A stretch of DNA of 64,000 nucleotides from an uncultured Candidatus Saccharibacteria bacterium (GCA_964448095.1 CAYUUT010000002.1:27959-91958), one strand, 5' to 3'. Counted from the stretch's first letter, positions 3,243 through 59,021 are shown. Numbers and translations: made by a program. The notes: a model not told the origin generated them from the sequence alone.

Positions 3243-3722
3243 TTAGTTATCCTTCCTATTTGGTGCCGTTGCCATTACTGCGAAAACATCCGCCATTAGA
3301 CGCAATGGCGTAGTAGCCAGCGAGTGGTAAGCATATTTTTTAATTCGTTTAAGCTGGTCATGGTCAATTGTATGGTCGCGGGCGTAAACAATCACATATA
3401 CCCCTTTAGCAGCGGCTTTATCATAAACTTCCCAGAATTTCTTGGAGTCCGGGCTATAGCCCAGAACCACTAAACGTTGTTCGCTCACTAAGGAGGCGAG
3501 GCTCTCACCTTCAGGCGCCAACTGCACGTTCATGAAAAGACCATTACGCTTAAAAATATCTTGTTCGGTCGCTACCGAGCAATTTTCAGTACTAACAAAA
3601 AGGACTTCACGACGGATATTGCTATAGAGGCGTTTCTCTTTACCTAGCCACCATTTGGCCACACCAACAGACGTAAACACTGAGACTAAGACAGGCAGAC
3701 CGATTTCAAAAGTTATGTTCAC
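3243..3722 (-). CDS. single-pass membrane protein with cytoplasmic TIR-like alpha/beta domain
   Basis: I place the start at GTG 3722, which has GGAGG 9 nt upstream and sits 4 nt after the DUF2188 stop. The TM helix is ITFEIGLPVLVSVFTSVGVAKWWL. TIR-like strings are VLFVSTEN, LVVLGYSPDSKKFWEV and VYVIVYARDHTIDHDQL. The longer ORF (to 3908) overlaps DUF2188. Confidence 0.5.
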   Translation of the reverse strand: MNITFEIGLPVLVSVFTSVGVAKWWLGKEKRLYSNIRREVLFVSTENCSVATEQDIFKRNGLFMNVQLAPEGESLASLVSEQRLVVLGYSPDSKKFWEVYDKAAAKGVYVIVYARDHTIDHDQLKRIKKYAYHSLATTPLRLMADVFAVMATAPNRKDN

Positions 3723-3726
3723 TACG

Positions 3727-3960
3727 TCAGCCCTCCGGTGGGTAGGGGTCTTTAGCCGGCGGAATCGTATACGCCTCCCTAATTTGGTTATTGTCTGCAC
3801 GGTGAATTTTAACTTCGCCGCCGCCGGAATTGTGAGCATGATGTTCGGCGCCGGCGATTGCCTCGGCCTGGGTATCGTACACCGCAGCGGCCCGCTCAGC
3901 GTGTTCACGCTTATCTTCCCAGTCGCCGTCTGGCCGCTTCATTACATGATAGTTTGACAT
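3727..3960 (-). CDS. DUF2188 domain protein
   Basis: The pattern HVMKRPDGDWEDKREHAERAAAVYDTQAEAIAGAEHHAHNSGGGEVKIHRADNNQIRE matches DUF2188. SD AGGAG lies 7 nt upstream of the ATG. Confidence 0.7.
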   Translation of the reverse strand: MSNYHVMKRPDGDWEDKREHAERAAAVYDTQAEAIAGAEHHAHNSGGGEVKIHRADNNQIREAYTIPPAKDPYPPEG

Positions 3961-11004: not shown

Positions 11005-11586
11005 ATGAGGAGTTTGCACTACTGGCGGAGGCATAAGCTGAAGTTCCTGATAGCTTTGCTAGTATTGATTGCCGTAGTAGCCACTCAGTCCGGCTGGCTC
11101 AATGGCGGTTTTAAGACCGCTGAACAGAGCCAGCCGGGGCTCTACCCGATAGACCATTACATTGATGGCGACACCATCGCCGTCAACATGAACGGCAGCG
11201 TAGAAACTGTTAGATTCATTGGCGTGGATACGCCAGAAACTCACAAGCCCAACACGCCGGTTCAGTGCTACGGTGAGCTAGCGGCCGCCAATACCAAGAA
11301 TAAAATCAGTAAATTCGGCAAAGTTCGCCTGCAAGCCGACCCGCTGGACACTAACCGCGATGTTTACGGCCGGTTGCTGCGCTACGTTTATTTGCCCGAC
11401 GGTACGCTACTCGACGAACAGATTATCCAGCAGGGCTATGGCTTTGCTTATCTGGATTTTCCGTTCACCAAGAAAGCTCAGTTTGCCATTGACGGCCAGA
11501 AAGCCCAGGACCAGAAAGTCGGCCTGTGGGGTGTTTGTCATCCCACTATCAACAAATACGGCGGCTACACCTCCAACCCGGCCTAA
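11005..11586 (+). CDS. secreted/membrane-anchored thermonuclease (staphylococcal nuclease family)
   Basis: N-terminal signal anchor. Motifs seen: DGDTIAV, RFIGVDTPE, GRLLRYVYLPDG, GYGFAY. Confidence 0.8.
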   Translation: MRSLHYWRRHKLKFLIALLVLIAVVATQSGWLNGGFKTAEQSQPGLYPIDHYIDGDTIAVNMNGSVETVRFIGVDTPETHKPNTPVQCYGELAAANTKNKISKFGKVRLQADPLDTNRDVYGRLLRYVYLPDGTLLDEQIIQQGYGFAYLDFPFTKKAQFAIDGQKAQDQKVGLWGVCHPTINKYGGYTSNPA

Positions 11587-14828: not shown

Positions 14829-15281
14829 ATGGCCAAACGCAAGCCCCAACCCGGTAACATTAGAAACCGCCGCGCCAGTTATGATTACGAGCTCGGTGAT
14901 TCTTTAGTGGTGGGTATGGAGCTGACCGGCGCCGAGACCAAAGCCCTGCGCATGCACCACGGCCAATTGCAGGGGGCTTACGTGACAGTCAAAGATAACG
15001 AGCTGTGGTTAATTAACGCCCAGATAATGCCCAGCAGCGGTATTCCAATCAGTGAAGACGGCCAGGTCCGCAGCCGCAAACTGCTGGCCAAGCGCCGAGA
15101 GATTGACCACCTAATAGCCGAGAAGCAAAGTGGTAAAACCATCGTGCCAACAGAGATTATTACCAAAGGCCGCTACATCAAGCTGCGCATATCTGTTGGC
15201 CGCGGCAAAAAACGCTATGACAAGCGCGAAACCCTCAAGCGCCGCCAACAGGAACGCGACATCGCTCGCCAAAACCCCTGA
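14829..15281 (+). CDS. smpB: SsrA-binding protein SmpB
   Basis: NRRASYDYELGDSLVVGMELTGAETKALR...KLLAKRREI is SmpB-typical. Confidence 0.9.
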   Translation: MAKRKPQPGNIRNRRASYDYELGDSLVVGMELTGAETKALRMHHGQLQGAYVTVKDNELWLINAQIMPSSGIPISEDGQVRSRKLLAKRREIDHLIAEKQSGKTIVPTEIITKGRYIKLRISVGRGKKRYDKRETLKRRQQERDIARQNP

Positions 15282-15391
15282 ACAAACCGCTCACGCGCGG
15301 AAGGCCTGTTGTCTGAGCCGCTTTCAAATAATTATAGCGTCTCCTCAACAGGCCTCACCGGCTCCGCTTGGGTAAGGTTGAGTTTGTTCAG
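15278..15391 (+). repeat. conserved structured intergenic element, copy A
   Basis: It shares the 16-nt block ACCGCTCACGCGCGGA and the 26-nt block ACCGGCTCCGCTTGGGTAAGGTTGAG with copy C. The outer stem is CTGAACAAAC/GTTTGTTCAG and includes the smpB stop codon. Confidence 0.75.
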
Positions 15392-15420
15392 AGGCTTTAG
15401 CTCGCTTATAAATTGATACA

Positions 15421-16224
15421 ATGGATTTAATGAAGATTTACTCGTGGAATGTTAATGGCATCAGAGCGGTTATAAACAAGGGCGAGTTCCAGAAATTTAT
15501 CAAAAAACACGACCCGGATATTTTGTGTTTGCAAGAAACTAAAGCTCAGCAGGGACAGGCGGAAATCAATCTACCGCAATATCAGGAATTTTGGAACTCG
15601 GCCGAGAAAAAGGGTTATTCCGGCACGGCCATTTTTACTAAAATTAAGCCAATTAAGGTAGAAAATGGCCTGCCGGATGATATTGTCAAAAAATACAAAG
15701 TCGAGGGCGACGTTTACGGTGACCCCAACAAAGAGGGACGGGTGATTACCGCCGAATTTGAGAAGTTTTTTGTGGTTGGCGTCTATACAATCAACGTTAA
15801 AGACGATCTTAGCCGCTTGCCGGTACGCCAAGCCTGGGATAAAGCCTTTTTGGCTTATTGCCAGGAGTTGGAGAAGACCAAGCCGGTGATTTTCTGCGGC
15901 GACCTAAACGTTGCCCACACCGAAGACGACTTGGCACGACCCAAAGAAAACGTCGGCAAGCGCGGTTTTACCGATGAAGAACGCGCGGGCTTTGAAAACT
16001 TGGTCGGACACGGCTTTTTAGATAGTTTCCGGCTGTTTACGCAGGGTAATGGCCATTATAGCTGGTGGACCCATTGGGCCAACGCACGCGCCCGTAACGT
16101 AGGCTGGCGGATTGATTATTTTTTGGTATCCGCCAGCCTTAAGTCCAAAATTAAAACTGCTGAAATCCATGCCGGTGTCATGGGCTCCGACCACTGCCCA
16201 GTCAGTATCGACCTTGATATATGA
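15421..16224 (+). CDS. xth: exodeoxyribonuclease III
   Basis: Motifs seen: SWNVNGIRA, LCLQETK, GDLNVAH, SDHCPV. Confidence 0.9.
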   Translation: MDLMKIYSWNVNGIRAVINKGEFQKFIKKHDPDILCLQETKAQQGQAEINLPQYQEFWNSAEKKGYSGTAIFTKIKPIKVENGLPDDIVKKYKVEGDVYGDPNKEGRVITAEFEKFFVVGVYTINVKDDLSRLPVRQAWDKAFLAYCQELEKTKPVIFCGDLNVAHTEDDLARPKENVGKRGFTDEERAGFENLVGHGFLDSFRLFTQGNGHYSWWTHWANARARNVGWRIDYFLVSASLKSKIKTAEIHAGVMGSDHCPVSIDLDI

Positions 16225-19541: not shown

Positions 19542-19626
19542 TGGTGGGCGAGGAGGGAATCGAACCCTCAATCCGTAAGGAACACGATTTTGAGTCGTGC
19601 GCGTATACCAATTCCGCCACTCGCCC
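19542..19626 (-). tRNA. tRNA-Leu (anticodon CAA), CCA encoded
   Basis: Hand-folded cloverleaf: acceptor GGGCGAG/CTCGCCC, anticodon loop CUCAAAA, long variable arm, T-arm GAGGG-TTCGATT-CCCTC, 3' ACCA. Confidence 0.9.
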
Positions 19627-25183: not shown

Positions 25184-26476
25184 ATGCAAGATGACATTCG
25201 TCCATCGAAAAGCAAAAAAACTCCGCCCAACCCCGCTCATCAGCCGATGCGCAGCCAGCGGTTGCGCGGCCATAACCTGGAAACTGCCAAAGACCGCTTG
25301 AATCCCAAGCCAGTGGCCAGGCCGGCTGCTGCCGAAGAAGCACCGATAGTTTTAGCGGCCGCCGAACCCCCGGCCAAGCAAACGCCAATTAAAAAGCAGC
25401 GCTTTGCCTGGTGGCGCGATCTGAATCGTAACCTGCGTTTTGGCATTATCGCGTTGCTACTGCTACTTTTCGCCACCGGCGCCATCCTTTTTTATAACCA
25501 CAATCGGCCAGCCGGCAGTTCTTTTATATCAATCACCAGACATAAAAAGGCGGCCGCTAAAACCGTCGCTTCGCCGCTCACCGGCCTCCAGGTAGACCCG
25601 GCGCTAGCCGCCCGGCCAGTCACCGGCATAATGATAGAAAATAGCGACGCCGCTCGGCCACAGTCCGGCCTGCAGGATGCCGGAGTGGTTTACGAAGCTA
25701 TTGCCGAAGGCGGGGTAACCCGTTTTTTGACGCTGTTCCAGGACGCTTCTCCGCAATACATCGGACCAGTGCGTTCACTGCGGCCGTACTATATTGATTA
25801 TGCCGCGCCGTTTCAAGCCAGCATCGTGCACGTGGGCGGTAGCCCGGATGCGCTGGCGGAGGTCACAGACGGCAGTTTCCGCAATTTGGACCAGTTCGCC
25901 AACGGCGACTACTTTACGCGCGTTAACAGCCGTGACGCGCCGCACAATGTCTACACCAGCTTTTCCGAGATCGACCAGCTCAACCAGAGCAAGGGCTACA
26001 CCAGCAGCTCTTATACCAGCTGGCCACGCAAAGCCGATAAAAAGCTAGCCACACCAACCGCCAAAACCATTCAGTTGGCCATTGCCGGCCCCGATTTCTA
26101 TGCCAATTACACTTACGATGCCAAGACAAACACTTACTTGCGCAGCGAGGGCGGGGCGCCCCACCTGGATCTGGTCAACGCCAGCGACACCACTGGCGTC
26201 CAACTGAGTCCAAAGGTAGTGATTGCCATAGTCGTGCCCCTAAGCAGCGGCGCTTTAGACGCTTCCGGAGCCTACTATTCAAATTATCAAACCAGCGGCA
26301 CCGGCACGGCATACGTCTTTCAGGATGGCGGTGTTACTCAGGGTAGCTGGACCAAAGGCGGCACCAATGACCAGATTAGCTTCAGCGACGCCAGCGGCGC
26401 ACCGCTCAAGCTTGATGCCGGCCAAACTTGGATAACACTGATCAGCGGCGACAATATGGTCACCTACGCCCCTTAG
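25184..26476 (+). CDS. DUF3048 domain-containing protein (YerB-like), membrane anchored
   Basis: IMIENSDAARPQSGLQDAGVVYEAIAEGGVTRFLTLFQD and RSLRPYY. Confidence 0.6.
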   Translation: MQDDIRPSKSKKTPPNPAHQPMRSQRLRGHNLETAKDRLNPKPVARPAAAEEAPIVLAAAEPPAKQTPIKKQRFAWWRDLNRNLRFGIIALLLLLFATGAILFYNHNRPAGSSFISITRHKKAAAKTVASPLTGLQVDPALAARPVTGIMIENSDAARPQSGLQDAGVVYEAIAEGGVTRFLTLFQDASPQYIGPVRSLRPYYIDYAAPFQASIVHVGGSPDALAEVTDGSFRNLDQFANGDYFTRVNSRDAPHNVYTSFSEIDQLNQSKGYTSSSYTSWPRKADKKLATPTAKTIQLAIAGPDFYANYTYDAKTNTYLRSEGGAPHLDLVNASDTTGVQLSPKVVIAIVVPLSSGALDASGAYYSNYQTSGTGTAYVFQDGGVTQGSWTKGGTNDQISFSDASGAPLKLDAGQTWITLISGDNMVTYAP

Positions 26477-27505: not shown

Positions 27506-27581
27506 TGGTGACCCCTGCGGGATTCGAACCCGCGATCTTCTGGATGAGAACCAGATATCCTAACCGCTAGACGAAGGGGCC
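27506..27581 (-). tRNA. tRNA-Glu (anticodon CUC), CCA encoded
   Basis: Acceptor GGCCCCT/AGGGGTC, anticodon arm TCTGG-TTCTCAT-CCAGA, T-arm GCGGG-TTCGAAT-CCCGC, 3' ACCA. Confidence 0.9.
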
Positions 27582-29865: not shown

Positions 29866-29890
29866 GCACAATTGCCTTTTAGGCAGTTAA

Positions 29891-29919
29891 AAACCCGCCC
29901 GCAAAGAGGCGGGTTTTTA
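29891..29919 (+). terminator. intrinsic terminator
   Basis: AAACCCGCC-cgcaaaga-GGCGGGTTTTT. Confidence 0.8.
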
Positions 29920-29946
29920 ACTGTTTCAAGATATAATGTTTATCTG

Positions 29947-32372: not shown

Positions 32373-33236
32373 ATGAAAGTCAATACTCTTACGCTTAACG
32401 GTCCTGGTTATCCGGCAATCCTGAAGGATATCCACCAACCGCCAAAACAGTTATTTTATATTGGAGCCCCGCCTGCGCAGTGGCTCGGCCGCCCCAAAGT
32501 AGCGGTTGTTGGCAGCCGCAAAATGACGAGCTACGGTAAGGCGGTGACCGAAAGCCTGGTGTCGGAACTGGCTAGGGCGGGGATTGTGATTGTCAGCGGC
32601 TTGGCTTACGGCATCGACGCCACAGCCCACCGGGCAGCCCTGGACGCCGGCGGTCTGACGGTTGCGGTTTTGGGAACCAGTGTTACAGACATTTCACCCT
32701 CTGGCCATATTGGATTAGCTCAGGAAATTATTAACCATGGAGGGACAATTCTTAGCGAATACGCCGCCGGCAGCCCGGCTTTTGCCGGCAACTTCGTCAT
32801 TCGCAACCGGATAGTTAGCGGCCTCTGTGACATTCTTCTAGTCACCGAGGCCGCGCTAAAGAGTGGCAGTCTACACACAGCCCGTTTCGCGCTGGAGCAG
32901 GGAAAGACGGTCATGACCGTACCTGGTAGCATTCTCACCCCTAGCAGCGAAGGCTGCAACAACTTAATTAAAAGTGGCGCTATTCCGGTAACGGATGCAG
33001 AAGATGTTTTCTTCGCCCTCAAAATCAATCCAGGTAAGCAAAAACTCGCCCTTGAGTTTCATGGTACAGACGAAGAAGAGCAAATCTTGCAACTAATCAG
33101 GGATGGCCTTGCCGGTCAGGAAGAGCTAGCTCTAGCTTCCGGCCTGGACGGCTCACAGATTGCCGGCACGCTGACCAGCCTAGAACTGCGCGGCCATATC
33201 CGCCCAGCCGGTTCGGGCAACTGGCTCGCGAACTAG
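32373..33236 (+). CDS. dprA: DNA-processing protein DprA
   Basis: VVGSRKMTSYGKAV...IVSGLAYGIDATAHRAAL. Confidence 0.85.
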   Translation: MKVNTLTLNGPGYPAILKDIHQPPKQLFYIGAPPAQWLGRPKVAVVGSRKMTSYGKAVTESLVSELARAGIVIVSGLAYGIDATAHRAALDAGGLTVAVLGTSVTDISPSGHIGLAQEIINHGGTILSEYAAGSPAFAGNFVIRNRIVSGLCDILLVTEAALKSGSLHTARFALEQGKTVMTVPGSILTPSSEGCNNLIKSGAIPVTDAEDVFFALKINPGKQKLALEFHGTDEEEQILQLIRDGLAGQEELALASGLDGSQIAGTLTSLELRGHIRPAGSGNWLAN

Positions 33237-33297
33237 CACGAGCCCCTAACTTTCCGCCGGACTCGAGACGAGCCTAAAGTCCTTTGTTGAGCGAGCC

Positions 33298-33416
33298 CTA
33301 CTTTCGACAGAGATTCAACGGAGGCGCAGCCGGTTGGGTGCTGAGCGGAGATGCGATGATTCTTTCGCAGCTCAGGCGAAGCACCCTCCGCGCGTGAGCG
33401 GCTCTGGAGAGAGTAG
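33298..33416 (-). repeat. conserved structured intergenic element, copy B (inverted orientation)
   Basis: The reverse complement shares CCGCTCACGCGCGGAGG, TGCTTCGCCTGAGCTGC and the 27-nt block GCATCTCCGCTCAGCACCCAACCGGCT with copy C. Confidence 0.75.
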
Positions 33417-33472
33417 CGTGAGCGGCGGTTGCATATATAGGTAAAGGCCTTTACACTGGGCATTTGAAATCT

Positions 33473-44505: not shown

Positions 44506-45675
44506 CTAAGTGCCCACTCCACTCTCTGCCACATGCAAAATTAGCTGGGCCAGTTTTTCAGCGGCCTGGGGCTGGGCCAGTGTACCTAGTTTGTCGCCAA
44601 GCGCTTCCCGCCCCCGTTTATTTTGCAAGAGCTGGTTTAGAACTTTGAGTAATTCTTCGGGTGTGACCTGGCTGTCAAGAACTTCGGCGGCCACCAGCTC
44701 CTGTAGTTGCTTAACGTTGGCCAGCTGGTGGCCGCCGGTTAAATGGGCCGCCGGAACCACCACGATGGGCTTACGCTGCAGGGCGAACTCGGCCAGAGTC
44801 GAAGCTCCGGCGCGGCACAATATTAGATCGGCCGCGCCGCTATATTTGTAGAAATCAGGGGTAAAGCCCAATACCGACACCCGGCCTTCGGCCTCGGGCA
44901 TTCGCTGATAGGCTTCGCTGGCTTCGGCTTGGTGCTGCTGACCGGCAATTATAATAATCCGCAACCTTGGTTGCTGTTTTAGCAGCTCTGGCGCGGTTTT
45001 GCTTATCAGGTCATTCATATAGCCGGAGCCCAGGCCGCCGCCAGCCACCAGTAGCACTAGACTGTCTTCTGGCAGCGCTAGCTCTCGCTTGAAGGTTCTC
45101 TGCTGCGCCTCGCTGACCGGTTTTATGTGCTCGTCTACCGGAATCCCGGTAAAAACCAGCTTGCCCTTGGGATAATCGTAATTTTCAACCGGCTGCCCAA
45201 CGGCATGTACCACCGCCCAGCGCGCTAGGATGCGGTTGGCTAAACCTGGAACAGCGTCCGAATCATGGGTAATAATCGGAATACCAAGGCGATGGGCGGC
45301 AATACCCACCGGTACGGCGGCGTAACTTCCCTTAGAAAAGACCACGTCGGGTTTTATCCGTTTTAGCTGGCGTTTAGCGCTGAATATACCGCGCGATACC
45401 CGGAAAAAATCCCGGATGTTCAATAGCAGCGTTTTAACATCTATCAGATGCGCCAGAAAACTCTGGCCATGGTAACGGCGATACTTACCTGAGGCAACAA
45501 GGCAAACTTCGTCAAAAGCCTGGTACTTTTCCTGTAAGCCTTCAAGCTTTTCGCCTTTCAAACCAATATAAACTATTCTGCATTTGGGATTTTTTGTTTT
45601 AAGCGCGTGGGCCAGTGACAGCAGCGGAGTGATGTGGCCGCCGGATCCCCCGCCCGTTAATACTATAGTAGGCAT
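44506..45675 (-). CDS. murG: UDP-N-acetylglucosamine--N-acetylmuramyl-(pentapeptide) pyrophosphoryl-undecaprenol GlcNAc transferase
   Basis: IVLTGGGSGGHITPLL. ATG 45675 is preferred over GTG 45687. Confidence 0.85.
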   Translation of the reverse strand: MPTIVLTGGGSGGHITPLLSLAHALKTKNPKCRIVYIGLKGEKLEGLQEKYQAFDEVCLVASGKYRRYHGQSFLAHLIDVKTLLLNIRDFFRVSRGIFSAKRQLKRIKPDVVFSKGSYAAVPVGIAAHRLGIPIITHDSDAVPGLANRILARWAVVHAVGQPVENYDYPKGKLVFTGIPVDEHIKPVSEAQQRTFKRELALPEDSLVLLVAGGGLGSGYMNDLISKTAPELLKQQPRLRIIIIAGQQHQAEASEAYQRMPEAEGRVSVLGFTPDFYKYSGAADLILCRAGASTLAEFALQRKPIVVVPAAHLTGGHQLANVKQLQELVAAEVLDSQVTPEELLKVLNQLLQNKRGREALGDKLGTLAQPQAAEKLAQLILHVAESGVGT

Positions 45676-57589: not shown

Positions 57590-58174
57590 CTAGCTGCCTA
57601 CGCCGGTAAAGCTGAGATTTACACCGTTGATGAAGACACCAACTCCGGTACCGGAATAGGCGTCGATATCCATGGAAACGCGCAGGCTGTATTGGGCCGT
57701 GGCACCGGAGTTCAGCGTATCGCCCAGGGCAACACCGCCGGTGGTGTTGGCACTGATAAGAGTTTGCAGCGGGATACTGACCTCCGGCTCCGGTACGTCA
57801 ACGCGGGTGAAGCTAAAGTAGACTTTGGTTAAGTTGATATTGGCCAGGTTGTTCGGCGTGGTGCTGATGGAGGCTTTTAGAGCCAGCGGCGCCGTGCCGT
57901 TATTTTTTAGATAAAATGTATTGCCCGCTGCCGGCACTTTCCCGCCGCCCGGCACCACGCCGCTAAAGTTGAAGCCAGCCGTTGAAGGCTCGGTAAATAC
58001 CGTGCCATTGGTGCTAATCTGGAGATCGGCTGCACCAATGTTAATGGCGTTGTTGGTTAGGCTGATCTGCGGACTCTGCAGTGCCGCAAAGGTAACGCCG
58101 GTACTAATTACACCCGCGGCGGTAATAATCGCCAAAGTTCTAAATAGCTGTCCCGCACCTCTTGAAGCTGTCAT
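57590..58174 (-). CDS. secreted TasA/camelysin-like protein with SipW-type signal peptide
   Basis: SD AGGAG. The N-terminus is LAIITAAGVISTGVTFAALQS. The body is beta-rich and high in Asn, Thr and Gly. Confidence 0.45.
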   Translation of the reverse strand: MTASRGAGQLFRTLAIITAAGVISTGVTFAALQSPQISLTNNAINIGAADLQISTNGTVFTEPSTAGFNFSGVVPGGGKVPAAGNTFYLKNNGTAPLALKASISTTPNNLANINLTKVYFSFTRVDVPEPEVSIPLQTLISANTTGGVALGDTLNSGATAQYSLRVSMDIDAYSGTGVGVFINGVNLSFTGVGS

Positions 58175-58262
58175 TTAGCTGAAAGTCTCCTGATAAAAAT
58201 ATCTCATCGGCAGCTATCAGCGTCAAACGCTTATGTTGAGTTTCTTTTACAACAAACGCTCT

Positions 58263-58394
58263 GCCGAACTTTCCCGGGGACCGCTCACGCGCGGAGGTGC
58301 TTCGCCTGAGCTGCTAAATAATGACCTTAGCATCTCCGCTCAGCACCCAACCGGCTCCGCTTGGGTAAGGTTGAGTCCCCAGGATAAGTTCGGC
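58263..58394 (+). repeat. conserved structured intergenic element, copy C (longest)
   Basis: The outer stem is GCCGAACTTTCCCGGGGA / TCCCCAGGATAAGTTCGGC. The core is identical in blocks to copy A and to the reverse complement of copy B. Confidence 0.75.
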
Positions 58395-58406
58395 TTCGCT
58401 ATAACT

Positions 58407-59021
58407 TTACAGTTCGATGGATTGGCCGCGCTCCAGGCCGTGGGTTTTGACGCCCTTCTCGTTGAGGCTACGCGCCAGAAAATCGGGGTTGCCACCCAGA
58501 AAATCATAGTGGATGGGTACGACTTGCTTGGCGCCAACTTGCATAGTGAAGGCGTAGGCGTCATGGAGCGAAATATCCGGACCGCTGATTGGCGCGGCCA
58601 GGATTTCGACATTCAGGCCGTCTAATTCCTTGCCGTCACCCGGGTGGAATAGGCGTTCGGCGAACAGATAGCCGGTGTTTTGGACGCTGGTGTCACCGTT
58701 AACCATCAGACAATGCGGCAGCTCTCTGGCCTGGACTTTCAGGCCACTTACCTCAAACTCTTGCTCGTCGCTAACAATTTCCGGCTGGGTTTTCATCTGT
58801 TTGGCGGTACTGGCATTGGCGTAAATTTTAACACCGTCGCCAACGAACTTTTCGGCCATATCCGGATCAAAATGATCCATGTGCTCATGGGTGTAAATTA
58901 CAGCGTCGAGCTTGCCGAATTTGTCGTAATTATCGGCGTCCTGGCCGCTGGGGTCAATTAGCACTCGGGCATCGCCATCCTCCACCAGCAAACAGCTCTG
59001 AAAATATCTCGTTAGTTTCAT
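58407..59021 (-). CDS. MBL-fold metallo-hydrolase
   Basis: YTHEHMDHF (HxHxDH). Confidence 0.75.
   Translation of the reverse strand: MKLTRYFQSCLLVEDGDARVLIDPSGQDADNYDKFGKLDAVIYTHEHMDHFDPDMAEKFVGDGVKIYANASTAKQMKTQPEIVSDEQEFEVSGLKVQARELPHCLMVNGDTSVQNTGYLFAERLFHPGDGKELDGLNVEILAAPISGPDISLHDAYAFTMQVGAKQVVPIHYDFLGGNPDFLARSLNEKGVKTHGLERGQSIEL

Follow-up and report, generated by a model that had tools for sequence, protein, structure and literature searches.

The 64,000 nt stretch of DNA analysed here (the window), which comes from an uncultured Candidatus Saccharibacteria bacterium, contains three copies of a palindromic element, hereafter A, B and C, each of which folds as one long irregular hairpin. 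The reading we favour, to which we give an even chance, is that these copies belong to a lineage-restricted Saccharimonadales family of persistent elements, mobile or formerly mobile, that would be recognised as a folded single strand. Patchy occupancy of orthologous sites, relics, nesting, adjacent and opposite insertions, strand preference, conserved mismatches and a foot motif in direct orientation make up a picture resembling that of REPINs (hairpin-forming doublets of repetitive extragenic palindromic, or REP, sequences), and it is this combination that favours mobility. We infer the enzyme involved, the boundaries of the element and its current activity.

A first-pass annotation of this DNA had described three intergenic copies of 115-130 nt that share long blocks. 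All the blocks it quoted were found where it had placed them, and it gave the outer and inner stems of A and C correctly. A covariance model of the family (R1) detected exactly three matches in the window, at 15273-15401 (-), 33295-33415 (+) and 58267-58394 (-), and no fourth; the copy number therefore stands, but the length was too short, since the full units of the window copies reach approximately 140-150 nt. The box CCGCTCACGCGCGGA is present exactly three times, at 15287 (+), 33387 (-) and 58281 (+), all other matches to it in the window having three mismatches, which is chance level. The 26-mer ACCGGCTCCGCTTGGGTAAGGTTGAG is found at 15357 and 58350, where the expected number of occurrences is zero. 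When the fold of each window copy was compared with those of shuffled sequences, z values of -3.1 to -5.9 were obtained, whichever the strand. The copies had first been read in an orientation (F) that turned out to be the less favourable one: the reverse complement (R) folds better in all three.

The family extends well beyond the window. An anchored pattern run over one genome per species yielded 38 loci; six were true, from five metagenome-assembled genomes (MAGs) of Candidatus Saccharibacteria/Saccharimonadales, and the other 32 were chance matches in high-GC coding DNA of Stenotrophomonas, Streptomyces and others. A three-anchor pattern run over the metagenomes of the Joint Genome Institute (JGI) gave 32 contigs, mainly from soil and rhizosphere, all 32 of them true. 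Further copies were reached through the flanking genes of orthologous sites, which brought the total outside the window to about 40, exclusively in Candidatus Saccharibacteria/Saccharimonadales MAGs and soil metagenome contigs; the closest named relatives of the SmpB protein encoded in the window are likewise Saccharimonadales. That further copies might not exist had been the initial worry, and it can be set aside. The sequence surveyed consisted of fragments, namely the 64 kb window and about 0.5 Mb of loci; scanning 260 kb of loci with R1 added one copy, in locus L063. Carriers have roughly one copy per 20 kb, and the window copies are solitary, 18-25 kb apart. Decayed copies were nearly absent from the approximately 0.6 Mb searched. 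Among more distant relatives, no copy was present within the 20-kb neighbourhoods examined. Searches of IMG/VR viral contigs, GenBank phages and PLSDB plasmids came back empty, so that a phage or plasmid origin is unsupported, and in viral contigs a degenerate pattern anchored on the loops (CTGARCYGC..GCRTYTCC..ACCGGCT) gave nothing but chance matches.

For comparison, 37 non-redundant copies were aligned in orientation R. The unit measures about 140-170 nt across the family. Its 5' half on R reads 5'-(TRR)-GCGAGC-C - arm - ACUYRR - junction - variable helix - GGAGAUGC - AT-rich loop, and its 3' half GCAGCUCAG - variable helix' - CCGYCCGCGCGUGAGCGG - arm' - G-GCGAGC-G-(YYA)-3'. Internal loops and junctions are nearly invariant, while the helices between them vary from copy to copy and yet remain complementary; the arms, of 17-30 bp, are specific to each copy. 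Subtypes differ at the 5' junction, which is CCUUACCCAAGCGGAGCCGG in type 1 (23 copies, including A and C), CGGAAGCGCAGCCGG in type 2 (nine copies, including B) and CCGNAGCGGAGCCGG in a short form (five copies). GCGAGC, with at most one mismatch, lies at both feet at a fixed distance in 17 of the 37 copies, as a direct and not an inverted repeat; selection for pairing alone would not keep a motif so arranged. As we read the alignment, the conserved positions outside Watson-Crick pairing would be purine-purine (G.A) oppositions on R and C.U oppositions on F. Those on R are GCGAGC facing GCGAGC, GGA facing GUGA, and a single G.A and a single A.G in the apical motif. By inspection, the core contains only a two-codon ATG open reading frame (ORF), which does not suggest a small protein or a type I toxin.

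Copy A (type 1) occupies 15263-15408, with R on the minus strand, between smpB and an xth-like gene. It scores 125 bits with the covariance model and folds at -49.3 kcal/mol (z = -5.9). GCTCGC is present at 15264 and 15400, and read on R the copy runs TAA-GCGAGC-arm-core-arm'-GGCGAGCG. Its outer arm (15271-15286) pairs with 15383-15399; this copy-specific, complementary segment, an inverted repeat of 20 nt with 85% complementarity, corresponds to the covarying helix 1 of the consensus. Next comes the box CCGCTCACGCGCGGA (15287-15301), which on R forms the 3' side of the GA-rich inner junction. It was present in every copy found, although this invariance is partly by construction, as the search patterns required most of the box; the copies of L081 and L083, both reached through flanking genes, carry the single-base variant GTTCACGCGCGG. 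The apical hairpin (15302-15356) is consensus helix 3, with double changes in 13 of its 22 pairs; it comprises the variable helix AGGCCTGTTG/CAACAGGCCT, the conserved motif CTGAGCYGC...GCRTCTCC and a variable AT-rich loop. The box ACCGGCTCCGCTTGGGTAAGGTTGAG follows at 15357-15382. Its ACCGGCT part is found family-wide, whereas GCTTGGGTAAGG, initially proposed as a conserved segment, is conserved in type 1 only, being absent from copy B and from one whole subtype. Copy B (type 2; 33288-33425, R on the plus strand) lies between dprA and topA and scores 95 bits; it carries CGGAGGCGCAGCCGG and lacks the 10-nt segment CCUUACCCAA. GCGAGC/GCTCGC is present at both feet in copies A and B. Copy C (type 1; 58257-58403, R on the minus strand) scores 112 bits and folds at -70.8 kcal/mol (z = -5.8); it is flanked by two minus-strand genes (57590-58174 and 58407-59021), and its foot motifs are degenerate (CGCTCTGCC / GGCTTCGCT).

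Covariation in the alignment has statistical support. RNAalifold predicted 39 pairs; in 27 of them both sides have changed in a way that preserves the pair. Standard pairs filled 92.4% of the cells, versus 75.7% when partners were shuffled and 35-42% when the partner was slid by 1-3 columns; double-change cells numbered 268, with 90 expected. The observed value was not attained in any of 500 shuffles on any of five measures. The six pairs that never vary within the conserved boxes are uninformative, because parts of those boxes were fixed in the patterns with which most copies were gathered. Duplexes between cognate arms had a mean energy of -37 kcal/mol versus -17 for non-cognate arms, and the cognate arm was the best partner in 29 of the 37 copies. 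The compensatory changes and the additional copies thus support the original proposal that the structure is selected, and that these are not decaying duplicates. Chance similarity, or the neutral decay of intergenic duplicates, could be entertained from the small copy number in the window, but exact 15- and 26-mers lie far above expectation, more than 40 copies with compensatory changes exist in other genomes, and the element is undiverged where its flanks diverge; we regard this explanation as excluded, with next to no probability left to it.

Folds were very stable on both strands, R being the better one in 33 of the 37 copies by a mean of 7.6 kcal/mol (Wilcoxon p = 1e-6). In the outer stems, G.U pairs number 73 on R as compared with 44 on F. 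The preference for R was seen both where the two neighbouring genes transcribe R and where they transcribe F, and is thus a property of the design of the family and not of local transcription. A preferred strand would also be expected of stand-alone small RNA (sRNA) genes on R, in which the copy-specific double-stranded arm would be processed like a precursor hairpin around a common protein-binding core. The bias towards R, the non-canonical positions that we read as conserved G.A on that strand, and the 17-30 bp copy-specific arms all agree with this. However, no conserved promoter precedes the 5' end of R, several copies have only 20-28 nt of space there, in which the neighbouring gene already begins on the opposite strand, and at its 3' end R often runs into the coding end of a convergent gene and has no terminator. 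Lack of room for a promoter, lack of a conserved promoter or terminator, and overlap with coding ends make stand-alone sRNA genes improbable.

Orthologous sites, defined by clustering of the flanking proteins, differ in whether they carry the element. The site between smpB and xth is filled in the window, L086 (SmpB 99% identical to that of the window), L083 (81%), L081 (74%), L053 and L064. L084 (80%), in which smpB and xth overlap, has an empty site, while L080 (83%) has a 55-nt spacer with GCTCGCC-14 nt-GCTCGG, a possible relic (L080:10440-10511). The site between dprA and topA is filled in the window and in L087 (DprA 93%) and truly empty in L089 (64%); L088 (71%) retains both feet and the outermost arm bases around a 13-nt centre (L088:8118-8209). 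The remnants in L088 and L080 suggest loss by deletion of the centre of the palindrome. The dprA-topA spacer of a more distant relative (L090:10865-11611) contains a different insert, which comprises an ORF of 82 aa and a GC-rich hairpin with a T-run (~11480-11560) and gave no match to the element model.

Rearranged copies were also found. At the smpB-xth site of L083 (L083:10450-10690), a complete inner element, which has arms of its own (GGAAATTTTTGGAGA / TCTCCAAAAATTT) and an apical hairpin nearly identical to that of copy A, is bracketed by the outer boxes CCGCTCACGCGCGGA and CCCGCTTGGGGGAGGTTAAG; this element is either nested or duplicated. L063:4631-4925 (the same as L074:1197-1491) carries two full copies in opposite orientation about 50 nt apart, the second detected by the covariance model only. 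L018 and L076 share the same convergent gene pair, with elements of different subtypes in opposite orientation, which we read as independent insertions. Presence and absence, the relic, and the nested and opposite-orientation cases favour one of the options listed in the first-pass annotation, a REP-like element or one resembling MITEs (miniature transposable elements with inverted repeats). The other two options were a protein-binding RNA motif and a recombination site.

The presence of the element next to smpB has consequences for the protein. The ORF (14829-15281, plus strand; Pfam PF01668) ends in the codons ATC GCT CGC CAA AAC CCC TGA, which cross the foot motif and enter copy A's outer arm; the stop codon falls within the outer stem, as had been noticed at the outset. 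GCTCGC at this site is native smpB coding sequence (ATC GCT CGC, Ile-Ala-Arg). SmpB reads 3-17 codons into the element, which explains the existence of SmpB variants of 159-177 residues. The SmpB tail is thus partly element-encoded, at 15263-15281 in the window and at the homologous loci L064 and L081 (for example ...IARHNLSNKPLTRGRSSV in L064), and its length varies, homologues having 150-177 residues. Because this tail is functionally important in trans-translation, the tolerance of element-encoded extensions is noteworthy.

The segment 13690-43233 of the window was compared with a second strain (L086/L087; ENA ERZ27245399, contig k141_832240). smpB and xth differ by 5.7% and 13.6%, respectively, between the strains, with zero differences over the 216 nt around copy A (15249-15464). 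Similarly, dprA, just upstream of copy B, differs by about 20-38% per 50 nt, with zero differences over 259 nt (33166-33424). For the coding DNA adjoining the two copies, the divergence amounts to 14-25%. Comparison of the strains reveals a mosaic: they are 95.4% identical overall and fully identical over tracts of 8.3, 3.3 and 1.8 kb, which lie beside stretches of about 86%, a pattern that points to frequent homologous recombination in the carrier population. Given this mosaicism, the identity centred on the element reflects strong constraint or recent exchange, and does not by itself prove selection.

Copies tend to lie at the ends of genes. According to simple, approximate ORF calls in the loci, 16 of 39 copies have an F-direction ORF that ends in the modelled hairpin or no more than 17 nt from it, typically in the form stop-C-GCTCGC, and about 10 more have an R-direction ORF ending within 26 nt. 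As little as 20 nt can separate a copy from the next gene. With respect to both neighbours, 10 copies were co-directional on R, nine on F and 12 mixed, which reveals no orientation bias. The neighbours are ordinary genes, coding for SmpB, exonuclease III-like (Xth), DprA, topoisomerase I (TopA), RNase J, class II ribonucleotide reductase (RNR), a MacB/FtsX permease, a MarR-like regulator and peptide deformylase. No sigma-70-like promoter or terminator tail was detected at any of the three window copies on either strand. Conventional terminators do exist in this genome: at 29884-29923 the window has a perfect hairpin of 16 bp with a GC core, preceded by an A-run and followed by a T-run (CAGTTAAAAACCCGCC ... 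GGCGGGTTTTTAACTG), which has the look of an ordinary bidirectional intrinsic terminator.

Proximity to gene 3' ends might indicate that the element is a host-domesticated cis-acting RNA module, that is, a 3' untranslated region or operon hairpin that guards against 3' exonucleases, is cut by RNase III or insulates neighbouring transcripts. This is compatible with a mobile origin and is a tenable but clearly less probable explanation than the one we favour; to the same limited degree we consider that the conserved GA-rich loops would then bind a protein. The position of the copies, internal loops all conserved across genomes, copies identical between strains despite divergent flanks, the near absence of decayed copies and the stability of the folds on both strands would all be accounted for. 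With no orientation preference, however, half of the copies would be transcribed as the strand with the C.U mismatches, although R is preferred in both contexts; this is difficult to square with an RNA motif that acts purely in cis and strand-specifically. Nor does such a module easily explain a density of about one copy per 20 kb together with related genomes that have no element at the same sites and no visible replacement, or hairpins devoid of a U-tract in a genome that has ordinary terminators such as that at 29884-29923. It is possible that a stable transcript hairpin, independent of orientation, accounts for the retention of the copies.

The direct repeat of the foot motif recalls the sites of site-specific recombinases that act on a folded strand, in the manner of integron attC or CTX phage attP/XerCD, with the GCGAGC repeats as crossover core. 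Integron attC sites are strand-specific folded hairpins in which structure is conserved and helix sequence is not, unpaired bases matter, and the site starts at or over the preceding stop codon. The Saccharibacteria hairpins resemble them in their strand-specific fold, in keeping structure while helix sequence varies, and in having stop codons at the foot. The 6-nt motif is directly repeated on both sides in 17 of the 37 copies, and being native to smpB (ATC GCT CGC) and present in L080, which has no full element, it could be a target. Yet half of the copies lack it, and L080 retains two GCTCG motifs, one more than expected of a clean empty site. The feet and the inner arm ends do not fit the RYYYAAC ... 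GTTRRRY (R''/R') core sites; copies are solitary and form no cassette arrays; no integrase (intI) was present among nearby annotated genes; and the interior blocks are highly conserved, unlike those of attC. We consider a recombinase site quite unlikely, marginally more so than stand-alone sRNA genes.

REPINs offer a closer comparison. They are REP doublets that form hairpins, in which compensatory changes are reported to be common, and they are mobilised by RAYT tyrosine transposases (PMC3116915, PMC3337134, bioRxiv 10.1101/2021.07.10.451892). The Saccharibacteria elements are likewise extragenic, persist for long periods and show compensatory changes in the hairpin. Both are non-coding hairpins of about 100-150 nt predicted in single-stranded DNA or mRNA, with conserved blocks separated by stretches in which only complementarity is kept; both are vertically inherited and thought to be recognised as a folded single strand. 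A REP is, however, a short palindrome of 20-40 nt with a GTAG or CGTC tetranucleotide at its foot (PMC3733652), whereas the Saccharibacteria feet have no such tag and bear GCGAGC/GCTCGC where a motif is present. Further, the unit described here is a single 140-170 nt hairpin and not a doublet of short palindromes, adjacent copies in opposite orientation having been seen once (L063). Its conserved parts are interior (the asymmetric junction and the apical motif), while those of REPINs are at the two ends; its foot motif is a direct repeat; copies number tens, not hundreds; the hosts belong to the candidate phyla radiation (CPR); and no RAYT was found among annotated neighbours in the fragments surveyed.

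MITEs are small non-autonomous palindromes located near genes, as exemplified by Correia/NEMIS in Neisseria, RUP in pneumococcus and ERIC, and are defined by terminal inverted repeats shared among copies plus a target-site duplication. The Saccharibacteria elements resemble them in being palindromic, adjacent to genes and polymorphic for presence or absence, as was observed at the smpB-xth and dprA-topA sites; both also form hairpins in transcripts, and their ends often supply or abut stop codons. The inverted arms are, however, copy-specific in this family (cognate -37 versus non-cognate -17 kcal/mol), and the conserved terminal 6-mer is direct and not inverted. Examined by eye, the TRR/YYA end triplets match as a direct repeat in two of 14 copies; as GCTCGC is native smpB coding sequence, it could itself be a duplicated specific target. 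No transposase was present in annotated neighbourhoods, and no scan of the collections was aimed at a parent insertion sequence. Bacterial MITEs are reviewed in PMC10969869, and the Rickettsia palindromic elements (RPEs) are described in PMC1779305 and PMC3767692. The resemblance to RPEs is one of behaviour only: both are repeated palindromes, about 100-150 bp long, that a host-dependent bacterium with a reduced genome retains at orthologous sites and that can enter coding sequence (here, 3-17 codons of the SmpB tail). RPEs are known for in-frame insertion into genes. They occur in an unrelated taxon and often inside genes, while the Saccharibacteria elements lie at gene ends and have nearly invariant loops.

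Other known families gave no match. At gathering thresholds, Rfam 15 detected in the window only two tRNAs, tRNA-Leu(CAA) at 19542-19626 (-) and tRNA-Glu(CTC) at 27506-27581 (-), and ARAGORN detected the same two. A permissive Rfam search (E<=10) of both strands of the three copies returned generic hairpins (miRNA precursors, sR19) at 13-20 bits, versus thresholds of 45-95. Hammerhead, group II domain 5, signal recognition particle RNA, k-turn and dif-like sites were considered by eye; none fits, in agreement with Rfam. A terminator scan called none at the three elements on either strand, and there is no U-tract, which disqualifies an intrinsic terminator. A retron msr-msd was dismissed as well, the neighbours being SmpB, Xth, DprA, TopA, RNase J, RNR, MacB and similar, with no reverse transcriptase. 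Other features of the window were rejected as members of the family: GCTCGC pairs at an element-like spacing (50782/50917 and 1973/2042) and the long inverted repeats at 25344-25568 and 45404-45595 all lie in coding sequence and are unrelated. The literature on repeats and structured RNAs in Saccharibacteria and CPR bacteria contained no description of such a family that we could find, and neither Rfam nor the phage and plasmid collections provided an RNA-family or mobile-element match, so the early statement that no known family fits holds. The family fails the defining tests of REP/REPIN, MITE, attC, intrinsic terminator, retron and all Rfam families. It may be a new type of single-strand hairpin element that is neither REP, MITE nor attC, served by an unrecognised CPR enzyme or useful to the cell as a folded strand, each copy being under purifying selection; we hold this to be somewhat less probable than a domesticated RNA module. 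Such an element would have as fixed architecture the direct GCGAGC feet, the compensated hypervariable arm, the GA-rich asymmetric junction, a second variable helix and the apical motif.

If the copies are mobile or formerly mobile elements, as we favour, the functional form would be the folded single strand of R, recognised by a protein specific for both sequence and structure. By analogy with RAYTs acting on REPINs or with IS200/IS605 transposases, the most likely candidate would be an enzyme acting on single-stranded DNA hairpins, for which the direct GCGAGC repeats at the feet may be end or cleavage sites. Transcription through a copy would yield a very stable RNA hairpin that probably affects the 3' end of the mRNA, either as a side effect or as a domesticated function.

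Several observations weigh against this interpretation. The scarcity of decayed copies and the conservation of all internal loops fit a host function equally well. No target-site duplication could be shown, and there is no GTAG/CGTC tag at the foot of the hairpin. Among the Pfam-annotated neighbours, which are housekeeping genes, there is no mobilising enzyme (no Y1_Tnp, no transposase). Arm complementarity could persist through arm-to-arm conversion at the DNA level, without selection on folding, and the identical tracts at the copies could reflect recent recombination instead of constraint. Gains and losses are inferred across protein identities of 60-85%, there being no close pair of filled and empty genomes. 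Finally, one candidate partner had to be rejected: a 218-aa protein with two helix-turn-helix motifs encoded between two inverted copies (L022:3483-4676), the C-terminal part of which we take to resemble a repeat associated with HNH homing endonucleases. The only homologues of this protein are P0242 and P0243, and neither is accompanied by elements. Next to the protein in L022 lie another long hairpin (~3660-3760) and a perfect 34-nt palindrome (~3775-3808).

The genomes of Saccharibacteria and other CPR bacteria rank among the smallest and most tightly packed known, and repeated non-coding DNA is therefore unexpected in them. The family described here must be one of two things, a REPIN-type replicator that persists within genomes of a new phylum or a nucleic-acid module with a function, an alternative that rests on its survival across SmpB identities of about 74%, its compensated fold and its conservation above that of neighbouring genes. 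The covariance model allows annotators to mask or label these loci. The elements account for the variable C-terminal tails of proteins such as SmpB, can be used as a strain-typing marker, and give the search for the enzyme or binding protein involved a concrete object.

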